This document shows, piece after piece, positions 2,970 through 16,678 of a stretch of DNA of 64,000 nt. Position 1 is the first letter of the stretch; the number at the start of each line of letters is the position of its first letter. Origin of the DNA: a virus; the IMG/VR virus record IMGVR_UViG_3300027908_000004; one strand, given 5' to 3'. The notes under the pieces were generated by a model that worked only from the letters and a program-made list of their open reading frames with translations, did no database searches and was not told where the DNA came from. The position numbers and the translations under genes were made by a program.

Positions 2970-4007
2970 ATGAGCACTTCAACTACTACTGGAACTACGG
3001 CTGTCCGTACTGAAACAATCCAAGGTGCAAAAGAGCTGGCCAGGGTATATCGGGAAAAAGACATCCCGTTATACCTTCACAGCGCACCCGGCATTGGCAA
3101 GTCGGACATAATGCGGCAACTGGCTGCTGAGAGTGGTTCAGGCTTCATTGATATCCGCGTGGGTACCATGCTGCCTGAAGACCTCACTGGCATCCCGGTG
3201 CCTGATCTGGAGAAGCGGCTGGCGGTATGGCTGCGGGCTACGTTCTGGCCTGAAGTCAACCGAGATGGTGCCCACGGTATCATCGCGTTTGATGAATTGG
3301 CTGACGCCAACCGTCAACTGCAATCGTGCATCTACCGGGTTATCTTGGATCGTCAAATTGGCGATTACAAGTTGCCACCCGGTTGGTGGCCGATGGCTGC
3401 TGGCAACCGTAGGGAAGACCGGGCTGCGGCCCAGTCAATTTCTACGGCCCTAGCCAACAGGTTTGCCCACGTCCACGTCCGTGCTGATGACAAGGCATGG
3501 ACTGAGTGGGCTAATCTGAATGGCATCAGCCCGCTTCTGATTGGTTTCATCAAGTTCAGGCCCGGCCTCCTTCATTCAATGGAAGGGGCTGACTTGTTGG
3601 CGTTCCCATCACCACGTTCTTGGGCTAAGGCGTCCAAGGTGTTTGATATTGGTGACGCACATTTACGGTTCCGGCTGGTGGCTGGCATCGTAGGTGAGGG
3701 GGCGGCAACCGAGGTTGAGACCTTCTTCAAGGCGCTCGATCTGCCTGAAATTGAGGACATACTCAGGGATCCGCTCAAAACCCATATCCCTGATGATCCG
3801 GGTTCCCGCTATGCTTTGACCAGCTTGCTTGCCCGCAAGATGGACAAGGAAAACTTCCCGCAAATCTACAAATACATCAAGCGCGATGACTTCGGTGCCG
3901 ACTACAGCACCGTGGTGGTGCTTGATGCCACCAAGCGGGATAGCACCCTCTGTGAAACCAAAACCTTTGTTGATTGGGCAAAATCCAACAAAAGTCTCCG
4001 TCTTTAG
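2970..4007 (+). CDS. MoxR/CobS-like AAA+ ATPase
   Basis: Walker A SAPGIGKS and Walker B IIAFDELAD. Size (345 aa) and layout are typical of MoxR-class AAA_5 ATPases. Confidence 0.8.
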   Translation: MSTSTTTGTTAVRTETIQGAKELARVYREKDIPLYLHSAPGIGKSDIMRQLAAESGSGFIDIRVGTMLPEDLTGIPVPDLEKRLAVWLRATFWPEVNRDGAHGIIAFDELADANRQLQSCIYRVILDRQIGDYKLPPGWWPMAAGNRREDRAAAQSISTALANRFAHVHVRADDKAWTEWANLNGISPLLIGFIKFRPGLLHSMEGADLLAFPSPRSWAKASKVFDIGDAHLRFRLVAGIVGEGAATEVETFFKALDLPEIEDILRDPLKTHIPDDPGSRYALTSLLARKMDKENFPQIYKYIKRDDFGADYSTVVVLDATKRDSTLCETKTFVDWAKSNKSLRL

Positions 4008-4072
4008 CATTTCTGTCCTACGGCCTTACGGGGCCGTAGTGAGAAGCGCTAAGTTTCAAACAGGAGGAGAAA
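4008..4072 (+). repeat. early intergenic cassette copy
   Basis: CATTTCTGTCCTA. Hairpin CTACGGCC 4018-4025 / GGCCGTAG 4032-4039. TGAGAAGCG, with the second hairpin degenerate. AACAGGAGGAGA 4059-4070. Confidence 0.7.
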
Positions 4073-4243
4073 ATGAATGCACATAAATTAATGTGGTTAC
4101 AAATCTGTGCATGTGGGCTGTTAATACCCTCCATCGCAGTAAATGCGATCAACGGGGGTGTAGTCTGGTTAGGCGTAGACGTTATCCTATTTGCCGCAAA
4201 CGGAGCAATGGCGGTTGACAATTTCCGCAGGAGGCGGTCATGA
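4073..4243 (+). CDS. 56-aa small membrane protein (below ORF-track cutoff)
   Basis: Hand translation: MNAHKLMWLQICACGLLIPSIAVNAINGGVVWLGVDVILFAANGAMAVDNFRRRRS. Two hydrophobic segments. Canonical RBS 3 nt upstream of the ATG. The stop overlaps the next start (ATGA at 4240). Confidence 0.5.
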   Translation: MNAHKLMWLQICACGLLIPSIAVNAINGGVVWLGVDVILFAANGAMAVDNFRRRRS

Positions 4244-4584: not shown

Positions 4585-4698
4585 ACCAATGCGGGTGTAA
4601 GTCGCTGCGTATCCTGAAATAGGGGTAGGCGTAGCCCGTCGCCGGAAGCAAGTTTGACCCACCTCTACTTCCGGCTCCCAATTCAACAGGAGGAGAAA

Positions 4699-5220
4699 AT
4701 GGCAACTGGAATTGAACTAATCCTTGGTGTTATGGGAAGATCCAAAATTGATGAAGTAGTCAAAGCCTTGGACCTTGCAATCACTTGGGATGAAAATGGG
4801 GCTGACCTACCCGAAACAACTATGGGGCACTACCTTGATAGGCGGCTCCAAACGGTCCATCAAGCCGCCCTTACCGAAGTGGGGCTGCATGTCGAACCAC
4901 CAAAAGACCCTATCTATGACTACCTTTTAGTCAAGGGGTTGGATGGGATAGCCCGCAAAACTGCAAGCTTCGGGTTGAGTCTTTACTACGATCCGTATGA
5001 AATGGGTGACGAGCCAGAAACCGCTGTCTTTGGGGTATCTCTGATCAGTAGGTACTTCCCAGTATTTCTTGATTGGCAAAAAGAAAGCGGTGGTTCAGGG
5101 GATACCATAGTCTTGGACCCTGAAACCCTAAAGCTGATTGAAATTGGCCGTCGCCACATTTCATCCGTCTTACCGTTCATTGAAACGGCTCCAATCATAG
5201 TAAAAGAACTGTTCTACTGA
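4699..5220 (+). CDS. hypothetical protein (173 aa)
   Basis: Same frame as track ORF 4654..5220. Start set at ATG 4699, directly after AACAGGAGGAGA (4685-4696). Confidence 0.65.
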   Translation: MATGIELILGVMGRSKIDEVVKALDLAITWDENGADLPETTMGHYLDRRLQTVHQAALTEVGLHVEPPKDPIYDYLLVKGLDGIARKTASFGLSLYYDPYEMGDEPETAVFGVSLISRYFPVFLDWQKESGGSGDTIVLDPETLKLIEIGRRHISSVLPFIETAPIIVKELFY

Positions 5221-5221
5221 G

Positions 5222-5288
5222 TGTTTCTGTCCTGCCCTAGCAATAGGGCAGTGAGAAGCACCTAGCTTCAAAACAGGAGGAGAGCAAT
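5222..5288 (+). repeat. early intergenic cassette, canonical copy
   Basis: TGTTTCTGTCCTG 5222-5234. Hairpin CTGCCCTA 5232-5239 / TAGGGCAG 5244-5251. TGA. Hairpin GAAGC-ACCTA-GCTTC 5255-5269. AACAGGAGGAGA 5272-5283. Confidence 0.75.
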
Positions 5289-6539
5289 ATGAGCAAGATA
5301 AAGGATAAAGCTGCGCGAGAGAAAGTTGTGGCTGCCCGAACAAATCTTTTAGTTTCGAATGGGTTTTTCGGGTTCCTTGCGTTACAACTACGCTTGGAGG
5401 AAGCCACTGACGTTGGCGGCCATGAGATACCCACCATGGGTGTGGACGGGGTTACCATATTCTACAACCCCACGTTCGTTCACTCTCTGAATGAACGGGA
5501 AATTGAAGCAGTAGAAGCGCATGAGGTAATGCACTGCTGTTTCAAACACTTTTCCCGCCGTGGCGATCGGGATCCTAAGCTGTGGAACATGGCTGGTGAT
5601 TACGTCATCAACAACGATCTCACAGCCTCGGGTTTCACCCTGCCGTGGAAGCCCTGCACTTTTGACATGTTGGTCAATTCCCGTGGCCAGTTGCCCAAAG
5701 GTGAAAAGTTTCATCTGGCTGATCCAGCGCTGGATGGGATGACCACTGAGGAAATCTATGACAAGCTGTACCAAAAGGCCACCAAAATCCAAATTCAAAT
5801 GGGTGACGGTGGTGATCCTGGCGGTTGCGGTGAAGTTCTGGATGCCCCCGGAGGGGCGGCGGGGCAGGAAGCTGCCAAGCAAACGTGGGAAACTGCGGTA
5901 CGGCAGGCGGTGGCTGTCGCAGCGGCCAACAATGCCGGGTCAATCCCCGGCAGCCTGAAGCGGCTGATTGATGATCTGAGCAAGCCCAAGGTTTCGTGGA
6001 AGGACCTGACGCGGGCCTTCATAGACCAAAGCCTGATCAAGGACATCAGTTGGTCACGGATCAGCCGTCGCAGCACTGCACTAGGGACGTTGTTGCCGGG
6101 CCTGATTTCTGACCGGCTCAACCATCTGGTCTTTGTGGTTGATACGTCAGGCAGTGTGGATGCCAAACTGCTCAACGAGTTCATGAGCGAGGTGGCTGGT
6201 GCATTGGATCAGGGCACTGCCGATCAGCTATCAGTTCTGTATGCTGATACCCGTGTTCATGACGTCGATGAGTTTGTACCGGGCGATCTGGTGACCGCCC
6301 GTGAGTTGTCAAACGGAGGGGGTGGTACTGATTTTGAAGACTCCTTCAAGTGGATCAAGGAGAAAATCCCTGATGCAAGTTGTGTCATCTACCTGACTGA
6401 CTTGCAGGTCTACAACTTTGGTGAGGACCCCGGTTGCCCGACCTTGTGGGCTGTGTTCGGGCCTTCATCCTACTACCCGCAGTTGGCTGACAAGGTGCCC
6501 TTCGGCACCCCAATACATGTATCTGGGGTCTACGAGTGA
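5289..6539 (+). CDS. VWA-domain protein with N-terminal HExxH metallopeptidase-like domain
   Basis: HEVMH motif (EAHEVMHCCFKH) in the N-terminal half. MIDAS-like DTSGS (VVDTSGSV) in the C-terminal half. This is the usual partner type for a MoxR ATPase. Confidence 0.75.
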   Translation: MSKIKDKAAREKVVAARTNLLVSNGFFGFLALQLRLEEATDVGGHEIPTMGVDGVTIFYNPTFVHSLNEREIEAVEAHEVMHCCFKHFSRRGDRDPKLWNMAGDYVINNDLTASGFTLPWKPCTFDMLVNSRGQLPKGEKFHLADPALDGMTTEEIYDKLYQKATKIQIQMGDGGDPGGCGEVLDAPGGAAGQEAAKQTWETAVRQAVAVAAANNAGSIPGSLKRLIDDLSKPKVSWKDLTRAFIDQSLIKDISWSRISRRSTALGTLLPGLISDRLNHLVFVVDTSGSVDAKLLNEFMSEVAGALDQGTADQLSVLYADTRVHDVDEFVPGDLVTARELSNGGGGTDFEDSFKWIKEKIPDASCVIYLTDLQVYNFGEDPGCPTLWAVFGPSSYYPQLADKVPFGTPIHVSGVYE

Positions 6540-6703
6540 ATTACACATGGCCGGGCAGGGTGCACATAATCGTGCACCCTCCCTACTATTATTTCACTCT
6601 GTGGGCTTTTGGACGCCGGTACCACAAAAGCAACATGACGTTCACGCCTTCCAGCCTTCGCGATTAGGCTGGAATGGTGAACGACATTTAACAGGAGGAG
6701 AAA

Positions 6704-7258
6704 ATGCACAATATTGCTAAACAGGCTGAATTGGCACAAGCGGCTATCGGTGGTGCCAAGCAATGGATTGAGGATCCCGATGCCACAAACGAGGGTATTT
6801 CTAAGGCCCTTGGTATAGCCAAGACTACAATGTCCCATGCCCGCATGATCCTTGAGTACGGGACAGCCATTGAACTGGTGGAAGTGACCAGCGGAAAAGT
6901 AGGTCTCGGGGCGGCAGCTAAAACCATACGTGCGCGGCTCAGCCCCGAGGATGTAAAAAAGGTCAAGATACGAAAAGCTGGCTGGAATAACCAGCGTCGT
7001 AAAAACCTTCAAAATGAATCTGTCATTTGGGTCAAACTTGGGGCAGCGTTATCCGCACTTACGGAGTTGCCAAGTCCAAAAGACGTTGTCCCCCTTGTAA
7101 AGAAAAACTATATGAGGGAAGTTACCACAAATCAGCACATCTATGCTGCATCAAACTGGATGGAGGAGTTTGTTCATGAATGGTCAAGATACCAGTCCGC
7201 AAAATCTGCGAAAAATACTTCTGACTCCGGAGGAAGCGACGCGGCTTCTGGAGCATAA
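6704..7258 (+). CDS. hypothetical protein with HTH-like segment (184 aa)
   Basis: ORF track entry. Exact AACAGGAGGAGA at 6690-6701. The segment ISKALGIAKTTMSHARMIL looks like a helix-turn-helix. Confidence 0.55.
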   Translation: MHNIAKQAELAQAAIGGAKQWIEDPDATNEGISKALGIAKTTMSHARMILEYGTAIELVEVTSGKVGLGAAAKTIRARLSPEDVKKVKIRKAGWNNQRRKNLQNESVIWVKLGAALSALTELPSPKDVVPLVKKNYMREVTTNQHIYAASNWMEEFVHEWSRYQSAKSAKNTSDSGGSDAASGA

Positions 7259-8021
7259 TACGCTGAATAGACCGTTGAGCGATCAGCACGTCAAGCGAAT
7301 TGCCGGTCAGATCATCGACGGCAAATGGAAGTTCAACGGCGACACCATCAAAATATCTAGTGATGGTGGGGTGCTGGATGGCCAGCACCGGCTTTGGGCT
7401 GTGGTGGAGTCAAAAATTTCAATTGAAACCATCATTGTCAGGGGTATTGCCCGTGATGCCTTTGCCACCATTGACACACTGCGCAAGCCCCGCAGCGGGG
7501 CTGACGTGCTGGCCCTTAGTGGTGCCACGCGGCACCGTGCTATCACATCAGCGGCCTTGCAATGGCTGTTGCGGTACCAGCGCGGCATACTTGAAACCTA
7601 CAGCAAGCCCATCAACAAGATTGAAAACTCAGACATTGAATCTATGTTTGAGAACAATCCTGGCATTGAACGTGCCGTGGCTCGCGTCATGGGGTTGCGG
7701 GGGCTGGCTAACCCCTCACTGGTCGGTTTCTTCTACTACATACTGACCAACCGGAGCCCTGAACTGGCTGAGCGGATGGTGTTCACGCTGGAAAACCCAG
7801 CAGGGGTATCCATCACCGACCCGTTCTTCAGGCTGAGGATGTACTTCTCAAGTGATCATCTGAAGCGCAAGGACCCGGTAGTGACCATTGCCTTGATGGT
7901 GAAAGCGGCGAACGCTGCCTACCACAATCAGGAAATCAAGGCATTGGTCTGGAGAAATCAGGGGGCTTCACCTGAGAAGTTCCCCAAACTGGAGGTTGCC
8001 TCATCGGGCAGCCCAATATGA
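7176..8021 (+). CDS. ParB-like nuclease domain (DGQHR-type) protein
   Basis: Motif LDGQHRLWAV. Start moved to ATG 7176, which has GGAGGAG 8 nt upstream. The 3' end of the previous gene overlaps it. Confidence 0.65.
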   Translation: MNGQDTSPQNLRKILLTPEEATRLLEHNTLNRPLSDQHVKRIAGQIIDGKWKFNGDTIKISSDGGVLDGQHRLWAVVESKISIETIIVRGIARDAFATIDTLRKPRSGADVLALSGATRHRAITSAALQWLLRYQRGILETYSKPINKIENSDIESMFENNPGIERAVARVMGLRGLANPSLVGFFYYILTNRSPELAERMVFTLENPAGVSITDPFFRLRMYFSSDHLKRKDPVVTIALMVKAANAAYHNQEIKALVWRNQGASPEKFPKLEVASSGSPI

Positions 8022-8036
8022 GAGGAGAAGTGAACT

Positions 8037-8393
8037 ATGTTATGGAAAATTGAGTATATTGTGGAAGGCAAGCACCTTGAGAAGGCGTTGGAAGCCGTAG
8101 CTGGGATTGCACTCAATATGCAGCCCCCGCAACCCGTCACCAATGGGATTGTGCGGGAAAAGACGGTCAAACAAGCCAAGGAGTCGGTTGCACAACACAA
8201 TCAAGTCCGTGAGCGCCTGATGCAGTGGGGCAAGAAGCCGGGTGACATCATTGCAAGTGGCGTAGTGCGTAACGCGATGCAGGAACTTGGCTTTTCACAC
8301 AATAACTACAGTTCCATCATCACCAATCTCAAGAAACAGAACTACTTGACCACAACTGAACGACGTGGCCAATTGCGGCTCCTTGACCATTAA
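8037..8393 (+). CDS. hypothetical protein (118 aa)
   Basis: ORF track entry. RBS GAGAGGAGAAG upstream. Confidence 0.55.
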   Translation: MLWKIEYIVEGKHLEKALEAVAGIALNMQPPQPVTNGIVREKTVKQAKESVAQHNQVRERLMQWGKKPGDIIASGVVRNAMQELGFSHNNYSSIITNLKKQNYLTTTERRGQLRLLDH

Positions 8394-8402
8394 GCTTTTC
8401 GG

Positions 8403-8467
8403 CAGAGACTGGTATATCCAGTCTCTAGCGAAGTGCTTTAGACACTTCTTAACAGGAGAACTATTAC
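8403..8467 (+). repeat. early intergenic cassette, diverged copy
   Basis: Hairpin AGAGACTGG 8404-8412 / CCAGTCTCT 8418-8426. Hairpin GAAGTG 8430-8435 / CACTTC 8443-8448. Then TTAACAGGAGAA. Confidence 0.55.
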
Positions 8468-8746
8468 ATGCCTCGTGGATTTATTAGGTACAAGGCCTAC
8501 CCCTTCCAGGAGAAGGACCCCATCCTTAGTGTTCTGTGGGCCATCAAGCGGAACCAGAAAATCAAGGACAGCGAGATCAAAGCCGCTGGAGGCCCGGCTA
8601 CGGGTACCCTGCGCAATTGGTGGCCGGATGGAAAAACCCGCAGGCCGCAGTTCGCTACAGTAGCGGCGGCTGCTATCGCCATGGGGCTGTCAGATTTGCC
8701 CATTACTTCTGAGGGCAGGCAGAAACTGAAAAATAAGTTCGGCTAG
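8468..8746 (+). CDS. hypothetical protein (92 aa)
   Basis: ORF track entry, preceded by a cassette copy. Confidence 0.55.
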   Translation: MPRGFIRYKAYPFQEKDPILSVLWAIKRNQKIKDSEIKAAGGPATGTLRNWWPDGKTRRPQFATVAAAAIAMGLSDLPITSEGRQKLKNKFG

Positions 8747-8849
8747 ACAAACGAACCCTTCTTGACAGAAGGGTTCCCACCCACTAGCAGAAACTCTGTT
8801 AGATACCACCGCATCCTATAGAAAGGATGCCAACAGTAGAGCAGAGTTT

Positions 8850-9293
8850 ATGGCAGACGTAGTAACAGAAGTTGAAGAGAGCCGCCCGGCCAAACCCAAG
8901 CGGGCGGCTAAGGCTAACGGGCAAGCCCCTGTAAAGGCCGCTGGTAAGGGTGCAGCCAAAACAGTCAAGGCTAAGGCTGGCGCTGAAAACGCACCCAAGG
9001 CCACGGCAAGCCCAGCAAAAGGCATGTCAAAGGCTAAGGGTACCAAAGCCAAGCCTAAAATGGTTGAAAAGGACCAATTTGGCTTACGCAAGGGGAGTAC
9101 CAAGTCACGGGCTGCAATGCTCTATGCCCGCAAATCAGGCGCTACCCTAGCGGAAGTCAAAAACGTGCTCGGTACCGTGCAGCTTAACGTCCTTGTTGGG
9201 CTGGAAGCTGATGGTTACCGGGTAACCCGTGAGTCTGAAAAGCGGGATGGCAAACGCCCCGTCACCCGCTACAGGCTTTTCCCCAAAACCTGA
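8850..9293 (+). CDS. Lys/Ala-rich histone-H1-like DNA-binding protein (147 aa)
   Basis: The N-terminal 70 aa are AKP-rich low complexity (KPKRAAKANGQAPVKAAGKGAAKTVKAKAG...). The C-terminal part is globular. An intrinsic terminator follows the gene. Confidence 0.5.
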   Translation: MADVVTEVEESRPAKPKRAAKANGQAPVKAAGKGAAKTVKAKAGAENAPKATASPAKGMSKAKGTKAKPKMVEKDQFGLRKGSTKSRAAMLYARKSGATLAEVKNVLGTVQLNVLVGLEADGYRVTRESEKRDGKRPVTRYRLFPKT

Positions 9294-9343
9294 TTGGATG
9301 GCGTCTTGGGCACCTGCGTGCAGGTTCCTACGTCCATCTGATA

Positions 9344-9384
9344 CCCCGCCGCACCTGCCCGGTAGCGGCGGGGTTTTTGTCTTT
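9344..9384 (+). terminator. rho-independent terminator
   Basis: Stem CCCCGCCGC 9344-9352 / GCGGCGGGG 9365-9373, followed by TTTTTGTCTTT. Confidence 0.65.
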
Positions 9385-9394
9385 GGAGGCTGCA

Positions 9395-9631
9395 ATGGCC
9401 ATTGGGTTCCGTCTTAGGTTACAAGATTGGTATAAGGAAGGAAAGCCTCTTCCCGGATATGAATACATGAATGGCGGCCCATACCTTGCTTGGTTATTGG
9501 GCAAATCCAAAAGCCCATCACACTATGATGTAGGGGATTTCCCCCTGCTTGAAGAAAGCAATCCAGCCTTGGAAGGGCCAAACGGCTGGACGGTGCTCCA
9601 AATGCTAATTGCCAGAAAGGGCTTAAAATGA
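9395..9631 (+). CDS. small protein, GPNG-tail paralog family
   Basis: ATG 9395 has GGAGG 6 nt upstream. C-terminal LEGPNGWTVLQMLIARKG matches the family tail. Confidence 0.55.
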   Translation: MAIGFRLRLQDWYKEGKPLPGYEYMNGGPYLAWLLGKSKSPSHYDVGDFPLLEESNPALEGPNGWTVLQMLIARKGLK

Positions 9632-9972
9632 AGGAAATAAGAGGGCGGCAGCACGTGTCGCACCGTAAAAGCAACCCCGCAGGAGGAAGCGTTGGCCTTC
9701 CTGACTTCCATACGTGGAAGGAGAGGGATACCTATTTTGCTGAGCACGCTGAGTATTTCACAACTGTGAAAAAAGATGGTGTCGGCCATTACGACCGCGA
9801 TGATCATAAAACGCTTGCGCAGGCTGAGGCCGCCGTTAAACTTAAGCAAAACGTAGGAGGGGGAAATTATTTGATCTATGCGGTCATAGGAGAACAGTCA
9901 GCTTTGGTCAAACCCATGCCTTACCAACCTAAGAGGGACAATGCCCAAACCAGCCAACATACTGATACATGA
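9628..9972 (+). CDS. hypothetical protein (114 aa)
   Basis: ORF track entry. ATGA overlap with the upstream gene. Confidence 0.5.
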   Translation: MKEIRGRQHVSHRKSNPAGGSVGLPDFHTWKERDTYFAEHAEYFTTVKKDGVGHYDRDDHKTLAQAEAAVKLKQNVGGGNYLIYAVIGEQSALVKPMPYQPKRDNAQTSQHTDT

Positions 9973-10147
9973 ATTTGATCCAGCCATCCAATCTGTTACA
10001 GATGATGATGGTGATGAAGTTCTAGGGTTCTACTATGAGTTCATAGATGAAAATGAAACCCCAATTGGCTACATGATTGGCCCCTACAGGGACGGCCCTT
10101 CTGCTGAAAAGGCTGCCCTGAGGGCATGGAAATTGAACGACTTCTAA
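9941..10147 (+). CDS. hypothetical acidic protein (68 aa)
   Basis: ORF track entry. Overlaps the upstream gene by 32 nt. Only a weak resemblance to the family tail (MIGPYRDGPSAEKAALRAWK). Confidence 0.4.
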   Translation: MPKPANILIHEFDPAIQSVTDDDGDEVLGFYYEFIDENETPIGYMIGPYRDGPSAEKAALRAWKLNDF

Positions 10148-10372
10148 AGTTCCGTTTGACTTCTGAAAATGCTTTAACCTACCGTGCGCTGGCTCGGGTG
10201 TAACAAAGGGTGATCTCCTCACAGCCGTGGTAGCAACGGGTGAATAATTCAAGGGAAGTTTCGGGGCTTTGTTACACAAAGGGCAATCATCCCTGTGAAA
10301 ACTTCCAAGCTATCGATTTGACGCCGCTATAAGCCCCCAAATTCCCCCTTGGGGCCTGCCGCGTCGAAGAGC

Positions 10373-10420
10373 GGGCCGTTGAGTTTAGGATCTCCTCCTG
10401 TTTCTCAACGGCCCGTACTT
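10373..10420 (+). ncRNA. hairpin with anti-RBS loop in the tRNA leader (candidate regulatory RNA element)
   Basis: Stem GGGCCGTTGAG 10373-10383 / CTCAACGGCCC 10404-10414. The 20-nt loop contains TCTCCTCCTGTT (10391-10402). Followed by GTACTTTTTCC, and the tRNA starts at 10429. Confidence 0.4.
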
Positions 10421-10428
10421 TTTCCATT

Positions 10429-10505
10429 GCACCCATAGCTCAACTGGATAGAGCAGTGGATTTCTAATCCACAGGTTGCTGGTTCGAATCCATCTGGGTG
10501 CGCCA
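10429..10505 (+). tRNA. tRNA-Arg (anticodon UCU), CCA encoded
   Basis: Manual cloverleaf: acceptor GCACCCA/TGGGTGC, D stem GCTC/GAGC, anticodon stem GTGGA/TCCAC with loop TTTCTAA, T arm GCTGG-TTCGAAT-CCATC (one C-T mismatch), discriminator G, CCA. Confidence 0.85.
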
Positions 10506-10522
10506 CCATAGAGGAACATCAC

Positions 10523-10849
10523 ATGCACAGACACGGTGAAGCAGCCGAGATAATTCTGGCTGCACAAAAACTCAAACAAGGGCACCACAAGAAGGTGTTG
10601 GGGGCTCTCTATGAAACAGCCCATGACAACGTGTATGTCGGCTTTGCGCGGCTGATGGACATAACCGGCTTTGATCGGGCGCTCGTCCGCAGGACAGTGC
10701 GTTTGCTGGCCCGTAGAGGGCTGGCTGAATACAGCAACGGGCTGTTTCATGACGACGGCACCGTAGCAGGGTCAGGGTACGCCATCACCATTCGGGGTAT
10801 AGATGTGTGGGAAATCCTAGAAGAGGGGCCAAACAATGCCCGTGATTGA
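10523..10849 (+). CDS. winged-helix-like DNA-binding protein (108 aa)
   Basis: ORF track entry. The segment ITGFDRALVRRTVRLLARRGLAEYS resembles a MarR/wHTH recognition region. Confidence 0.5.
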   Translation: MHRHGEAAEIILAAQKLKQGHHKKVLGALYETAHDNVYVGFARLMDITGFDRALVRRTVRLLARRGLAEYSNGLFHDDGTVAGSGYAITIRGIDVWEILEEGPNNARD

Positions 10850-11114
10850 TTACCCTACTTTTGAACGCGCAGGTAACAATTGGGATAAAGCTTGGGGAAT
10901 AGCCTGTGGTTATGTTTCGTGGGGTGGGCTATCCGGTAATGCAAACGGGCTTACCTACTTCTTGGGTGCCAATCCGCAAGCGCTAAAATGGGCTGATGTC
11001 GGACGTACCCTTGTTGAACTGCCTAATGAAGAAGTAAAGCGGAAGATGGAACTTCTTGCTGGCCCATACTACGAGACCATCATTAAGGCGTGGAAGGCCA
11101 TTCACGTCAAATAA
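10836..11114 (+). CDS. small protein, GPNG-tail family (diverged tail)
   Basis: C-terminal LLAGPYYETIIKAWKAIH. Confidence 0.5.
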   Translation: MPVIDYPTFERAGNNWDKAWGIACGYVSWGGLSGNANGLTYFLGANPQALKWADVGRTLVELPNEEVKRKMELLAGPYYETIIKAWKAIHVK

Positions 11115-11126
11115 GAGGAGCTAGAA

Positions 11127-11459
11127 ATGACCAAGATTTTGTATTCGCCGGGCTACGGTGCTGGATGGTCGACTTGGATGAGTGGTAGCCAGGAATTCAT
11201 CAAATGGGCATTGACCTATCAGCCCATAATTGACGCCTTAGAACGGGGCGAAAAGTTAAATCCTGAAGCTAAAAAGAAGCATCCGGCACTCGTTCGATTC
11301 CTCAAAGAATCGAAGGAGAAGTTTGGGGTCAAAGATCCCTACTTGGGCGGGGCAGGCCAACTCCAAGTCTACGAAGTTTCCGGTCCATTCAGGATAGATG
11401 AATATGACGGACGCGAGTCGGTCATTGAGGCCTCCCAAGAGGCCTACATTAGCATCTGA
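11127..11459 (+). CDS. hypothetical protein (110 aa)
   Basis: ORF track entry. RBS GAGGAG upstream. Confidence 0.55.
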   Translation: MTKILYSPGYGAGWSTWMSGSQEFIKWALTYQPIIDALERGEKLNPEAKKKHPALVRFLKESKEKFGVKDPYLGGAGQLQVYEVSGPFRIDEYDGRESVIEASQEAYISI

Positions 11460-11500
11460 CTAGTTCAAATAAGAACTGTTTGAAATCTTTGAATTTGTCA

Positions 11501-11543
11501 GTTACAAAGGAAAAAGGCCGCCCCAGCGTGAACCGGAGCGGCC
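11501..11543 (-). terminator. rho-independent terminator oriented for minus-strand transcripts
   Basis: Stem GGCCGC 11516-11521 / GCGGCC 11538-11543. On the minus strand the stem is followed by TTTTTCCTTTGT. There is no T-run on the plus-strand side. Confidence 0.5.
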
Positions 11544-11877
11544 TGTCAGAATACTTGTTCAGAGCAAGATTCTGGAATTCGCTGCTGCCGCAGCTAGGGA
11601 TTGAATAACCCAACCTTCGGCGCACGTCCAGAGCCTTCTGAAGCAAATATGCTGGCCATAGCCAGCTCGTTGTATGAGCCGACACCATGGGCAAGACCGT
11701 GGGTGCAAGCGCGGAAGGGCATCCGTCAGTAAAACTCAAGGCTTCGCGCTGTGAAGCGCCAGTTGCCAGGAGAAGGCTCCGGGTTGCCCCGTCCTTCAGG
11801 CAGTTACTTCCACGATGGTTCTTGGAAGTAGCACACGCCAGCGCCAGTGCGAGACATGCCGCCAGCCAGACCCCGGC

Positions 11878-11893
11878 CACTTCCTAGGAAGTG
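11878..11893. promoter_or_regulatory. perfect 16-bp palindrome, candidate operator
   Basis: CACTTCCTAGGAAGTG. The same ACTTCC/GGAAGT half-sites recur as TACTTCCA-N10-TGGAAGTA at 11805-11830. Confidence 0.35.
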
Positions 11894-12050
11894 TAATGTT
11901 CTTGAACCATCAACCCGGCTCCGTTGTTCATGCCGTATTAGCTTCTGCTCTAGGGATTTCTGTTCTACTAAGAAGTCCCTAGCTAAAGCTATTCCCTCAC
12001 CGTTGTTCATGCTATATATCAATGTTCTCTGCTGTTTCTGGGTATTTCTA

Positions 12051-15256: not shown

Positions 15257-16678
15257 GTGTCAGTAAGCTTATCAGCAGTACAGGAAAACCTGATTTGTCT
15301 GCTCGCCTACGACGACAAGCATTGTGGTTCTATCCGCAACCTGGTTGAGGTTGAGTGGTGGGGTGGCCCATTCCGTGAAATTGCACGGCGCATCTATGAG
15401 TATGTAGACCGCTACAAGAGAGCTCCAAAAGATCACATAGCTGATCTTATGGCTGATAAGTTGGATTCAAAAAAGGGCAGTGAATCCACCCTTTACACTG
15501 ACATCCTGACCAGCATTAGAGACCAGCGAGAAATGGTCAATGCTGAGTATGCAATGAGCCAGCTAGGGCTCTACATCAAACGCCAGTCACTCCGTTCAGT
15601 GGCCATTGATCTAGCCAAAGCCCTTCAACGGGACACCGATGAATCCCTTGAAGAGGCAGAACGTCTAATCAAGACGGCCACGGTTCAGGCAGCAACCGTG
15701 TTTGATCCTGGGCTTCGGTTGTCCGATAAGGACAGAGTACTTGAATTCCTGGACCAGGGCACAAGCTGCTTCCCCACCGGGATACCAGAGTTTGATAAAC
15801 GGGGGTTTGGGCCAACCCGGAAAGAACTGTGGCTTTACATAGCTGCGGCAAAACGCGGCAAGACCTGGATGCTGATCCAATTGGCCAAGATGGCCATCGT
15901 GCACAGACTTCGGGTTGTGCACATAACCCTTGAAATGTCTGAAGATAGATCGGCACAGCGCTACATGCAGGCCCTGTTTGCCATGTCCAAGCGGCCCGAC
16001 AAGGCCATTGTCACCAAGTTTGAACGGGATCAGCTAGGTCGCCTTACCGGCTTTGACGAAGCTGAAGTCTACCCCAAACTGTCACTGGGTGACCCTGATA
16101 TTCGTGAGAAACTGGAGCAGAAAATTGACCAATTTGGATCCCGGCTTCTTAGTAATATATTTGTCAAGCAGTTTCCTACTGGGTCTCTTACTGTCAGGCA
16201 ATTGGAAGGCTACTTGGATAGCCTTAATTCTTCTGAGTGTTTTGTACCTGATCTGCTCATCGTTGACTACCCTGATTTGATGAAGCTGGACAAGGACAAT
16301 TATCGGCTTGCCATAGATGCGGTCTACAAGGACCTTCGAGGCATTGCGGTAGAGCGCAACTTGGCATTAGCCGTGGTCAGCCAAGGCAATCGCTTATCCG
16401 AGAAAGCCAAGAACGTAGGAAGCGGCCATGTGGCCGAGGCATGGAGCAAAATAGCCCATGCTGATTGCATCATTACCTACAACCAGACGGAATCCGAGAG
16501 AAGCATGGGTTTGGCTAGGCTGTATGTTGCAGGCGGTCGAAATGATGAAGATAAGATAACCCTTTGCATATCGCAAAACTATGCACTTGGGTCCTTCGTG
16601 GTCGACTCAATATTGATGTCGGCTAGCAATTATTGGCCGAATCTTCCAAACGGAGATCAAGAAAATGAGGATGCGTAA
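15257..16678 (+). CDS. dnaB: DnaB-like replicative DNA helicase
   Basis: Walker A AAAKRGKTW and Walker B LLIVDYPDL in the C-terminal RecA-like half. The N-terminal domain is the length seen in DnaB. GTG start. Confidence 0.8.
   Translation: MSVSLSAVQENLICLLAYDDKHCGSIRNLVEVEWWGGPFREIARRIYEYVDRYKRAPKDHIADLMADKLDSKKGSESTLYTDILTSIRDQREMVNAEYAMSQLGLYIKRQSLRSVAIDLAKALQRDTDESLEEAERLIKTATVQAATVFDPGLRLSDKDRVLEFLDQGTSCFPTGIPEFDKRGFGPTRKELWLYIAAAKRGKTWMLIQLAKMAIVHRLRVVHITLEMSEDRSAQRYMQALFAMSKRPDKAIVTKFERDQLGRLTGFDEAEVYPKLSLGDPDIREKLEQKIDQFGSRLLSNIFVKQFPTGSLTVRQLEGYLDSLNSSECFVPDLLIVDYPDLMKLDKDNYRLAIDAVYKDLRGIAVERNLALAVVSQGNRLSEKAKNVGSGHVAEAWSKIAHADCIITYNQTESERSMGLARLYVAGGRNDEDKITLCISQNYALGSFVVDSILMSASNYWPNLPNGDQENEDA

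Follow-up and report, generated by a model that had tools for sequence, protein, structure and literature searches.

The genome of an uncultivated virus, represented here by a stretch of 64,000 nucleotides (nt) from IMG/VR record IMGVR_UViG_3300027908_000004 (referred to throughout as the window), carries at the downstream end of its early region a conserved hairpin with a loop exactly complementary to a 12-nt block found at the ribosome-binding sites (RBSs) of a whole class of early genes. This anti-RBS hairpin (10371-10416, plus strand) is, on balance, probably the core of a phage non-coding RNA (ncRNA) element that pairs with the early RBSs and represses them as a class. What has been computed here comprises the sequences themselves, the hairpin and its covariation, the co-conservation of the loop with its complement and a complementarity that is specific to one class of genes. 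The label early, as applied to the genes of the first 7 kb, is taken from their position and layout.

The shared RBS block, or tag, reads AACAGGAGGAGA, and its seven exact copies on the plus strand are those already recognised in an initial annotation of this DNA. They lie at 748-759 (2 nt before the ATG at 762; predicted duplex with the hairpin loop −22.1 kcal/mol), 1926-1937 (ATG 1943; −23.5 kcal/mol), 2949-2960 (ATG 2970, the gene for an AAA ATPase; −23.6 kcal/mol), 4059-4070 (ATG 4073; −22.8 kcal/mol), 4685-4696 (ATG 4699; −21.6 kcal/mol), 5272-5283 (ATG 5289, a DUF2201 metallopeptidase/VWA gene; −22.2 kcal/mol) and 6690-6701 (ATG 6704, the last of the early copies; −21.5 kcal/mol). The same strand holds a near copy, AACAGGAGGTAG, at 1324-1335 (ATG 1339; −20.6 kcal/mol), another with the core CAGGAGG at 4228-4234 (ATG 4240; −21.4 kcal/mol), a one-mismatch copy, AACAGAAGGAGA, at 481-492 (ATG 498; −15.5 kcal/mol) and, from a sequence scan, a looser copy at 8451-8462; the near copies reported earlier at 1324 and 8451 are therefore present, and the first of the three begins at 481 rather than 483. 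All of the forward copies stand 2-9 nt 5' of an ATG and all contain AGGAGG. With both strands of the window scanned and one mismatch allowed there are nine matches, against 0.23 expected, and none of 100 shuffled sequences reaches nine.

The complementarity is confined to this class. Duplexes between the loop and the translation initiation region range from −20.6 to −23.6 kcal/mol for nine early genes, as against at least −17.0 kcal/mol for the other 96 open reading frames (ORFs), whose median is −9.2 kcal/mol. Beyond the early block most genes of the window have weak Shine-Dalgarno (SD) sequences or none, and the AGGAGG of the early genes is for that reason unusually strong for this phage. 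The loop thus has the complementarity that would be expected of a trans-acting small RNA (sRNA) that occludes RBSs, with 12 of 12 positions complementary to seven of them and strong pairing with two more.

The hairpin itself consists of a G+C-rich stem of 13 bp (10371-10383 / 10404-10416) that closes a 20-nt loop (10384-10403), with a predicted energy of −33.8 kcal/mol and a z-score of −7.2 against shuffles. Its inner part, in which GGGCCGTTGAG (10373-10383) pairs with CTCAACGGCCC (10404-10414), had been described before as an 11-bp stem, which stands as given but extends outwards by two further pairs. The anti-RBS 12-mer, UCUCCUCCUGUU in RNA, occupies 10391-10402 and is the exact complement of the tag; it is the sole match to the tag on the minus strand in the 64 kb, so that the transcribed strand reads TCTCCTCCTGTT, once and within the loop, just as first noticed. 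The 5' half of the loop, UUUAGGA (10384-10390), is also conserved, reading UUURGGRU in relatives. A scan of the window with a covariance model found no second copy of the hairpin. Could the motif be the RBS of a gene on the opposite strand? No ATG, GTG or TTG lies within 15 nt past the motif on the minus strand of the window, as the initial annotation had held, and there is none within reach in the related loci L001, L008 and L012, so a reversed RBS was rejected.

Relatives were found with the DnaB-type helicase (15257-16678) as a query of IMG/VR, giving 26 loci of 38-79% protein identity; coding DNA is about 65-72% identical. Within the 71-76% clade the available DNA extends far enough upstream in eight loci (L001, L004, L005, L008, L009, L010, L012 and L014), and a metagenome scan contributed L163 and L172/L206/L207. 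Of these, L001, L004, L163 and L172 form what is called group A below. Only about seven distinct hairpins make up this small family, all from uncultivated phages and all compared at the level of sequence; besides the window, at least six related lineages from metagenomes share the arrangement.

Within all eight clade loci TCTCCTCCTGTT occurs once, on the gene strand, in the loop of a hairpin downstream of the homologue of the ORF at 9628-9972, and hairpins with differing stems stand at the syntenic site in L001, L004, L008, L010, L012 and L163. The stems read CGGGCCGTTGAG in the window, GCGGGCTGGG in L001, TGCCCGCTGGG in L008, TGGCCACTGAGG in L010 and ATGCCCCGTGTG in L012; their mean identity over these five lineages is 51%, and every one of them pairs perfectly (76 of 76 cells in an in-register count). 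Across seven sequences the stem is a perfect helix of 10-13 bp and the loop measures 20-24 nt. Covariation in related phages had been proposed earlier as a check on the hairpin, and it is found: in an alignment of the arms alone the ten loop-proximal pairs are 100% paired, eight of the ten are changed on both sides, and the covariation score is 0.89 compared with 0.23 for shuffles, with none of 500 shuffles as good and slid registers at most 51% paired. The covariance model separates family members (63-81 bits) from sequences that share the pattern only (37 bits at most). Its alignment holds a single register, while the stems sit 0-2 nt from the loop in three registers; the value of 56% paired that it gave for the outer helix, equalled by the register slid by −1, was set aside as an alignment artefact in favour of the in-register and arms-only counts.

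Variation in the loop, TTTRGGRT(T)CTCCTCCTGTT, is limited to its two R positions (the first of which is T in L012) and one T that is absent in the window, and the anti-RBS 12-mer is identical in seven of seven distinct family sequences. Since the stems are free to vary while the loop is invariant, the hairpin is selected for what its loop presents. A relic of an inverted duplication was considered and rejected, the loop being invariant where stems and flanks have diverged. Each lineage has exactly one reversed 12-mer, inside the hairpin loop, and 5-15 forward copies upstream, and in all lineages 2-3.7 kb separate the hairpin from the last tag, which lies upstream of it on the same strand. The distant loci L215, L017 and L021, which have no tags, lack the hairpin too. 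Wherever a related lineage has the early-RBS class, loop 12-mer and RBS 12-mer are conserved together.

The tag behaves in relatives as it does in the window. Exact copies number 14 in L214 and 13 in L216, with several one-mismatch copies besides, and 5-11 in each of L148, L150, L163 and L172; each is placed 5' of a start codon and 3' of a long hairpin, upstream of the anti-RBS hairpin. When 91 distinct GGAGG-type RBSs from seven lineages are aligned on GGAGG, the AACA before it and the AGA after it are 79-88% conserved, and conservation immediately beyond the 12-nt block is 43% on one side and 64% on the other. Because it drops at both edges, the conserved block of the RBS coincides exactly with the 12 nt to which the loop is complementary. 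A canonical 16S tail would, by pairing, favour A at the C of the tag two bases before GGAGG (−2) and U at the A just after it (+5). The tag keeps C and A at these places, where they are matched by G and U of the loop. The early RBS tag, as judged from these alignments, is selected beyond what ribosome binding needs.

These positions also bear on whether the loop is a general anti-SD decoy, a mimic of the 16S 3' tail that would bind any strong SD, including those of host mRNAs, and bring about host shut-off or a reallocation of ribosomes. The loop does contain CCUCC, the window reading GGAUCUCCUCCU where 16S has GGAUCACCUCCU, and for bacterial sRNAs with CCUCCUCCC or UCCC loops an action on numerous RBSs has been suggested (PMC4615179). 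The likeness to 16S that had been remarked upon earlier (GGATCTCCTCCT against GGATCACCTCCT) does amount to a single difference in the window, but relatives have GGATTCTCCTCCT, with an extra T. Measured against the 16S 3' tail GGAUCACCUCCUUA, the window agrees in 12 of the 14 positions; the corresponding stretch is GGAUUCUCCUCCU, with an inserted U, in relatives and GGGUUCUCC in L012. The extra U in relatives (GGAUUCUCC) weakens the 16S match, the complementarity extends to non-SD positions conserved only in the phage early RBSs, and the other genes of the phage pair far less well with the loop. Any complement of AGGAGG will resemble the 16S 3' tail, and the resemblance is for that reason mostly a by-product; a decoy of this kind, also put forward in the initial annotation, is considered improbable.

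A more distant clade offers a different kind of evidence. L018, L019 and L020, whose helicase is 59% identical, have a homologous non-coding region that has in common with the window its start, AGUUCC directly after a stop codon, and the block CAGCCG..CAACGGG..UGAAUA. Their hairpin, CCGGCAGG/CCUGCCGG, carries the loop GUUUCCUCCUGUAAGUCCAUUG and is followed by no U-run. The loop reads UUUCCUCCUGUA at the anti-RBS position in L019, where 11 of 12 tag positions still pair and a C-to-U change gives a G-U pair. RBSs of the ACAGGAGGA type precede only two or three genes in this clade, the best targets being the RBS of a 330-amino-acid ORF at L019:1304, which by size and position is probably the ATPase homologue, and that of the ORF at L020:1296 (−24 and −25 kcal/mol). 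Here the complementarity continues, by way of the 3' extension of the loop, into the gene-specific flank GGCUU, and the clade provides the sole hint of what may be true covariation between loop and target.

The same variant is instructive with respect to a reading at the level of DNA, by which a DNA-binding protein would recognise the 12-mer and the reversed copy would simply be one more site, much as with the asymmetric stoperators of cluster A mycobacteriophages. The numerous asymmetric copies, their intergenic placement and their strong orientation bias would all suit such a protein. The forward copies, however, are RBSs without exception, 2-9 nt before a start and with AGGAGG; the reversed copy shares their transcribed strand and is enclosed in a covarying hairpin, a sign of selection on RNA, and the L019 variant preserves pairing through a G-U pair that is meaningful in RNA only. 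A DNA site is accordingly very unlikely.

Not all of the conserved loop is taken up by the complement of the tag. Within it a mini-helix of 4-5 bp is predicted between 10386-10390 and 10396-10400, leaving UCUCC open in an apical loop of 5-6 nt, and across the family these pairs are kept in 97.8% of cells, the changes being solely one-sided, from A-U to G-U. The 5' half of the loop, UUURGGAU, and the ACAGGA of the tag both resemble the CsrA consensus, ACARGGAUGU. The loop might then be imagined as a decoy of the CsrA/RsmA type, its RGGAU titrating a GGA-binding translational repressor for which the ACAGGA of the early RBSs would be another site, and the GGA does lie in a hairpin loop. With a single GGA per RNA where known decoys carry many, with that GGA predicted to be paired with UCC, and with the conservation of the tag complement left unexplained, this is the faintest of the alternatives.

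How might the proposed ncRNA work? From the comparisons above we infer a stable RNA, its pairing in vivo, a repressive outcome, the timing of that repression and the source of the RNA. The stem of the element, at the downstream end of the early region, would be scaffold only, doubling as a terminator hairpin in most lineages, and the loop would display UCUCCUCCUGUU for pairing with AACAGGAGGAGA in the SD region of about 9-17 early genes. Such pairing would cover the RBS and block binding of the 30S subunit, lowering the translation, and probably the stability, of the early messages as a class, and would spare the middle and late genes with their weak and different RBSs. Within the loop, UUURGGAU would pair with UCCU so that the exposed UCUCC makes the first contact, and the mini-helix would disfavour short ordinary SD sequences that are unable to displace it. 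The RNA could be the stable 3' end of early transcripts or could come from a promoter of its own, and in either case repression would build with time. That tag and loop together form a built-in RNA timer, silencing the early class once the early period has passed, with the mini-helix as a specificity gate that spares middle, late and host SDs, is a tentative extension of this reading, though a quite possible one. The idea in the initial annotation that the loop pairs with the extended SD of the early genes as a class is well served by the co-conservation, the covarying stems and the coinciding boundaries, and the most economical reading is RNA-RNA pairing, with an invariant loop that complements a tag selected beyond ribosome binding.

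The position of the hairpin and what follows it invite comparison with a transcription terminator. It separates the early block from the genes that follow, its stem is G+C-rich and within the 5-15 bp of intrinsic terminators, and directly after the stem come TTTTTGT in L008 and L010, TCTTTTGT in L012 and ACTTTTT in the window, where a run of five U (10419-10423) that begins 2 nt past the stem makes a weak terminator tail. The hairpin therefore looks like an intrinsic terminator, if one with an unusually large conserved loop in place of the usual short one of 3-8 nt, and a terminator scan passed over it on account of the length of the loop. One may then ask whether it is a plain or protein-regulated terminator, or a stabiliser of 3' ends, whose loop binds a phage or host protein such as an antiterminator or processing factor and whose complementarity to the tag is without function. 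The TTTTTG of L008, L010 and L012, the CTTTTT of the window and a conserved loop of 19-20 nt, 8 nt beyond what pairing with the tag needs, would be accounted for in this way. A complement of 12 out of 12 with coinciding boundaries would nevertheless have to be chance, at about 4^-12 per position, and recognition of a sequence and of its complement alike is not a property of RNA-binding proteins. In group A, moreover, the T-run is degenerate (the tail of L001, L004, L163 and L172 is only C/U-rich, with the stem lengthened instead by AAGGGU/ACCCUU), and in L019 it is missing, and the loop is kept nonetheless, so that a terminator function by itself is unlikely to be the explanation.

The neighbouring tRNA belongs to the window rather than to the element. 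Directly 3' of the window stem is ACTTTTTCC, followed from 10429 by a tRNA-Arg(UCU) (anticodon TCT in DNA; 10429-10505, plus strand); that a tRNA follows the hairpin had been seen before, with a spacing of 8 nt that becomes 3 nt when counted from the end of CTTTTTCC at 10425, or 12 nt past the stem. In none of eight relatives does a tRNA adjoin the hairpin, their tRNAs (Gln, Pro and others) being kilobases away, and a protein gene comes after the hairpin instead, from which it follows that the tRNA-Arg is an insertion specific to the lineage of the window, a neighbour outside the conserved element. The placement of the hairpin in a pre-tRNA leader, ending at 10416 with the tRNA starting at 10429, is accordingly not conserved. 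The proposal of the initial annotation that the RNA is a tRNA leader released by RNase P does not hold as a general mechanism, there being no tRNA in any relative and TTTTTG after the stem in three. Cleavage at 10428/10429 could still trim read-through transcripts in the window phage.

The early transcripts have hairpins of their own. A hairpin of about 50 nt, interrupted by a small 3/2-nt internal loop, stands before every early gene (1869-1918, 5217-5265, 6635-6687 and others in the window, and likewise in L214 and L216), in which the lower stem, AUGUUUCU / AGAAGCAU, is conserved and the upper stem varies and covaries. Folding of the early-gene leaders predicts that the tag is single-stranded, 3' of each hairpin. 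In T7 the early genes have RNase III sites between them, and the early-gene hairpins of the window resemble such sites. The 3' arm of these hairpins includes GAAGC, which has an alternative partner, GCUUC, just 5' of the RBS; this pairing would make a 5'-terminal hairpin after cleavage.

Separation of the early genes by long hairpins that look like processing sites, together with the placement of the anti-RBS hairpin downstream of the last tag on one strand, is compatible with action in cis, in which a loop at the 3' end of the last processed early mRNA (about 6690-10425) would pair with the tag at its own 5' end, or with tags on the same transcript, for autoregulation or protection of the ends. 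Which gene is the last to carry a tag, and how far it stands from the hairpin, differs among lineages, however. A terminator-like hairpin with a T-run lies at 9354-9372 in the window, about 1 kb upstream of the element, and at 1079-1110 in L008, directly upstream; the arrangement in L008 suggests that the element may be a separate short transcription unit. Group A, furthermore, has a conserved TTGAAG-N17-TAA(A/G)CT about 75-95 nt upstream of the loop (L001 about 5445-5475, L004 about 5790-5822, L163 and L172; located by eye), a modest motif found in that group only, which is possibly the promoter of the element itself. Pairing in cis is in view of these features rather unlikely.

The matching boundaries of loop and tag, the strand, the covariation of the stem and the variant that still pairs through G-U are explained less well by each of the rivals than by the proposed class-wide pairing. 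Several points do weigh against it. Loop and tag are both invariant in the main clade, so that there is almost no true covariation of loop with target, and the covariation in L019 is a single example. Were early transcripts, through their 3' ends, the sole source of the RNA, one loop would face about 10-15 targets, and the RNA would have to accumulate for stoichiometric repression. A 12-bp duplex within a closed loop of 20-24 nt is topologically strained, and target pairing alone leaves the conserved 5' half of the loop unexplained. Nor is a terminator function universal, since group A has a poor T-run and L019 has none. As for a promoter, sigma-70 scans of 9000-12000 in the window and of L214 found no enrichment, and no equivalent of the group A motif was recognised in the window.

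With regard to known systems, one close likeness in architecture is to the cuckoo sRNAs of bacteria (CcsR/RSs0680, alpha-r14/NfeR1; RF02344), which have adjacent hairpins with compensatory stems and conserved anti-SD-like CCUCCUCCC loops and are proposed to occlude the ribosome-binding sites of several mRNAs (PMC4615179). In both cases a variable stem bears a conserved loop, CCUCCUCCC there and CUCCUCCU here. The cuckoo sRNAs, however, are alphaproteobacterial, chromosomal and stress-induced, and carry the 9-mer in the loop of each of two to four hairpins; the element described here is phage-encoded and has a conserved loop of 19-20 nt, in its last hairpin only, with a perfect 12-mer complement to the phage's own early tag. 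That last loop reads UCUCCUCCU, agreeing with the 9-mer at seven of nine positions, and the penultimate loop reads UUCCCCC or similar. Rfam scans of the window, L010 and L001 (E ≤ 10) gave the tRNA and noise only, the match to ar15/AbcR scoring 14 bits against a gathering threshold of 40. Other sRNAs, among them Staphylococcus aureus RNAIII, RsaE and Mycobacterium tuberculosis 6C, use C/U-rich loops, including those of terminal hairpins, for first contact with SDs, and sX13 is a further sRNA with conserved anti-SD-like loops (PMC4615179, PMC6486639). Those of RNAIII, RsaE and 6C are short UCCC motifs with loose targets, in contrast to the exact 12 nt and purpose-built tag found here.

Among phages, antisense RNAs of this general kind are represented by the CI RNA of P4 and the c4 RNA of P1 and P7. 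The latter is cut from a longer transcript, and its loops pair around a phage RBS and block expression (PMC12197685). The c4 RNA differs in that it controls one operon (icd-ant) in the immunity of a temperate phage and is itself a substrate of RNase P, whereas here one loop faces about 9-17 early RBSs in a seemingly lytic phage; there is no similarity in sequence or in Rfam, no tRNA-like RNase P substrate was found in the element, and the tRNA of the window is the only link to RNase P. The intrinsic terminator TE of T7 ends the class I genes, downstream of genes separated by RNase III-type hairpins. A G+C-rich hairpin at the end of the early block is the shared feature, with a U-run after it in L008, L010, L012 and, more weakly, the window, but the loop here is an invariant 20-24 nt rather than a variable 3-8 nt, and the U-run is weak or missing in some lineages. 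In T4, RegB cuts GGAG in early SDs, and RegB and RegA between them shut off the early class through its translation initiation regions and spare the middle and late genes (PMC3014915). Those regulators are proteins, unlike the RNA-RNA pairing proposed here.

The hairpin is the last part of a non-coding region of 281 nt (10148-10428), which as a whole folds better than shuffles (z = −2.9), the folding of this interval having also been recommended at the outset. A penultimate hairpin, CCCCAA / TTGGGG (10335-10354, plus strand), has the CU-rich loop AUUCCCCC; as read by eye, its loop contains UUCCCCC in the window, L012 and L163, UUCCUCU in L001 and L004, UUCCCCA in L008 and UCCUUU in L010, and L172 lacks the hairpin. 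At its smallest, in L012 and group A, the element measures about 65-110 nt. The window and L010/L014 have an additional 5' domain (10148-10334, plus strand), which is absent in L001, L004, L008 and L012. Two plus-strand helices are predicted within it. P1 (10198-10208 / 10267-10277) includes the inverted repeat GTGTAACAAAG, which had been noted previously with its first arm one position further on, at 10199-10209, and has a counterpart of different sequence in L010 (492-499 / 561-568); P2 (10254-10261 / 10299-10306) corresponds to 548-555 / 597-604 in L010, with two compensatory pairs. The two helices cross and would tentatively form a pseudoknot or mutually exclusive folds, in two or three lineages only. 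The 3' arm of P1 has a second possible partner downstream, in both the window and L010. A conserved block, CAACGGGTGAATAA (10234-10247, plus strand), recurs in L010 (528-541) and L019 (about 6825-6845), three lineages in all. Its AACGGG has two potential partners, CCUGUU in the anti-RBS loop and UCCGUU at the 5' end of the region, and the block may be a partial mimic of the RBS that masks the loop. Exact-pattern scans of IMG/VR with this 14-mer and with the 15-mer GGATCTCCTCCTGTT gave unrelated sequences among the matches listed, and a scan of a genome collection with the loop pattern found no family member and hence no clue to the host.

Two further tag-like sequences deserve mention. At the left edge of the early region, L214 (2828-2842) and L216 (2566-2580) carry TCTCCTCCTTCTGTT, which was considered as a second anti-RBS and rejected; it is the RBS AACAGAAGGAGGAGA, 9 nt before the ATG of a divergent minus-strand gene. 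In group A a one-mismatch tag, AACAGGAAGAGA (L001:6070, L004:6411, L163:12322, L172:7869), precedes the second gene past the hairpin, which starts about 500 nt beyond it; this is the only tag-like RBS downstream of the hairpin.

The phage as a whole stands well apart from those in culture. A megablast of 9000-12000 against GenBank phages gave zero matches and the nearest DNA polymerase is 32% identical, which leaves neither a relative in culture nor an annotation to lean on. Genes run on the plus strand up to about 39 kb and on the minus strand beyond. The recognisable products of the first 7 kb are a MoxR-like AAA ATPase (2970-4007) and a DUF2201 metallopeptidase/VWA protein (5289-6539), a frequently co-occurring pair, and both belong to tagged early genes; the remaining products scanned in these 7 kb gave no family match. 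L013 (9285-9355) and L014 (17329-17399) have a 71-nt tRNA with the anticodon CUA, of the amber-suppressor type and labelled "Pyl" by ARAGORN, which hints at stop-codon suppression or recoding in that lineage.

What does this imply for the control of phage development? The early cassette, a processing-type hairpin together with the tag, and its reader element are kept across lineages whose genes are about 70% identical, and this conservation in spite of such divergence points to strong selection on both. The design of a variable stem with a conserved anti-SD loop is already known from bacterial sRNAs. What sets the candidate RNA apart is that it is phage-encoded, that it would read a purpose-built 12-nt tag on the phage's own early genes, and that its form is that of a terminator-type hairpin closing the early block. 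No account of a phage RNA that complements an RBS shared among early genes came up in literature searches. To our knowledge, the early shut-off of lytic phages is understood mostly in terms of proteins, such as RegA and RegB of T4 or the kinase of T7, and RNA regulators of virulent phages have barely been characterised. The variable-stem, anti-SD-loop architecture of bacterial sRNAs would thus occur in phages too, and, if the proposed pairing is true, a single short loop would govern a dozen or more genes through a common, engineered-looking RBS tag, as an RNA counterpart of T4 RegA/RegB and possibly as a compact design for class-wide translational control.

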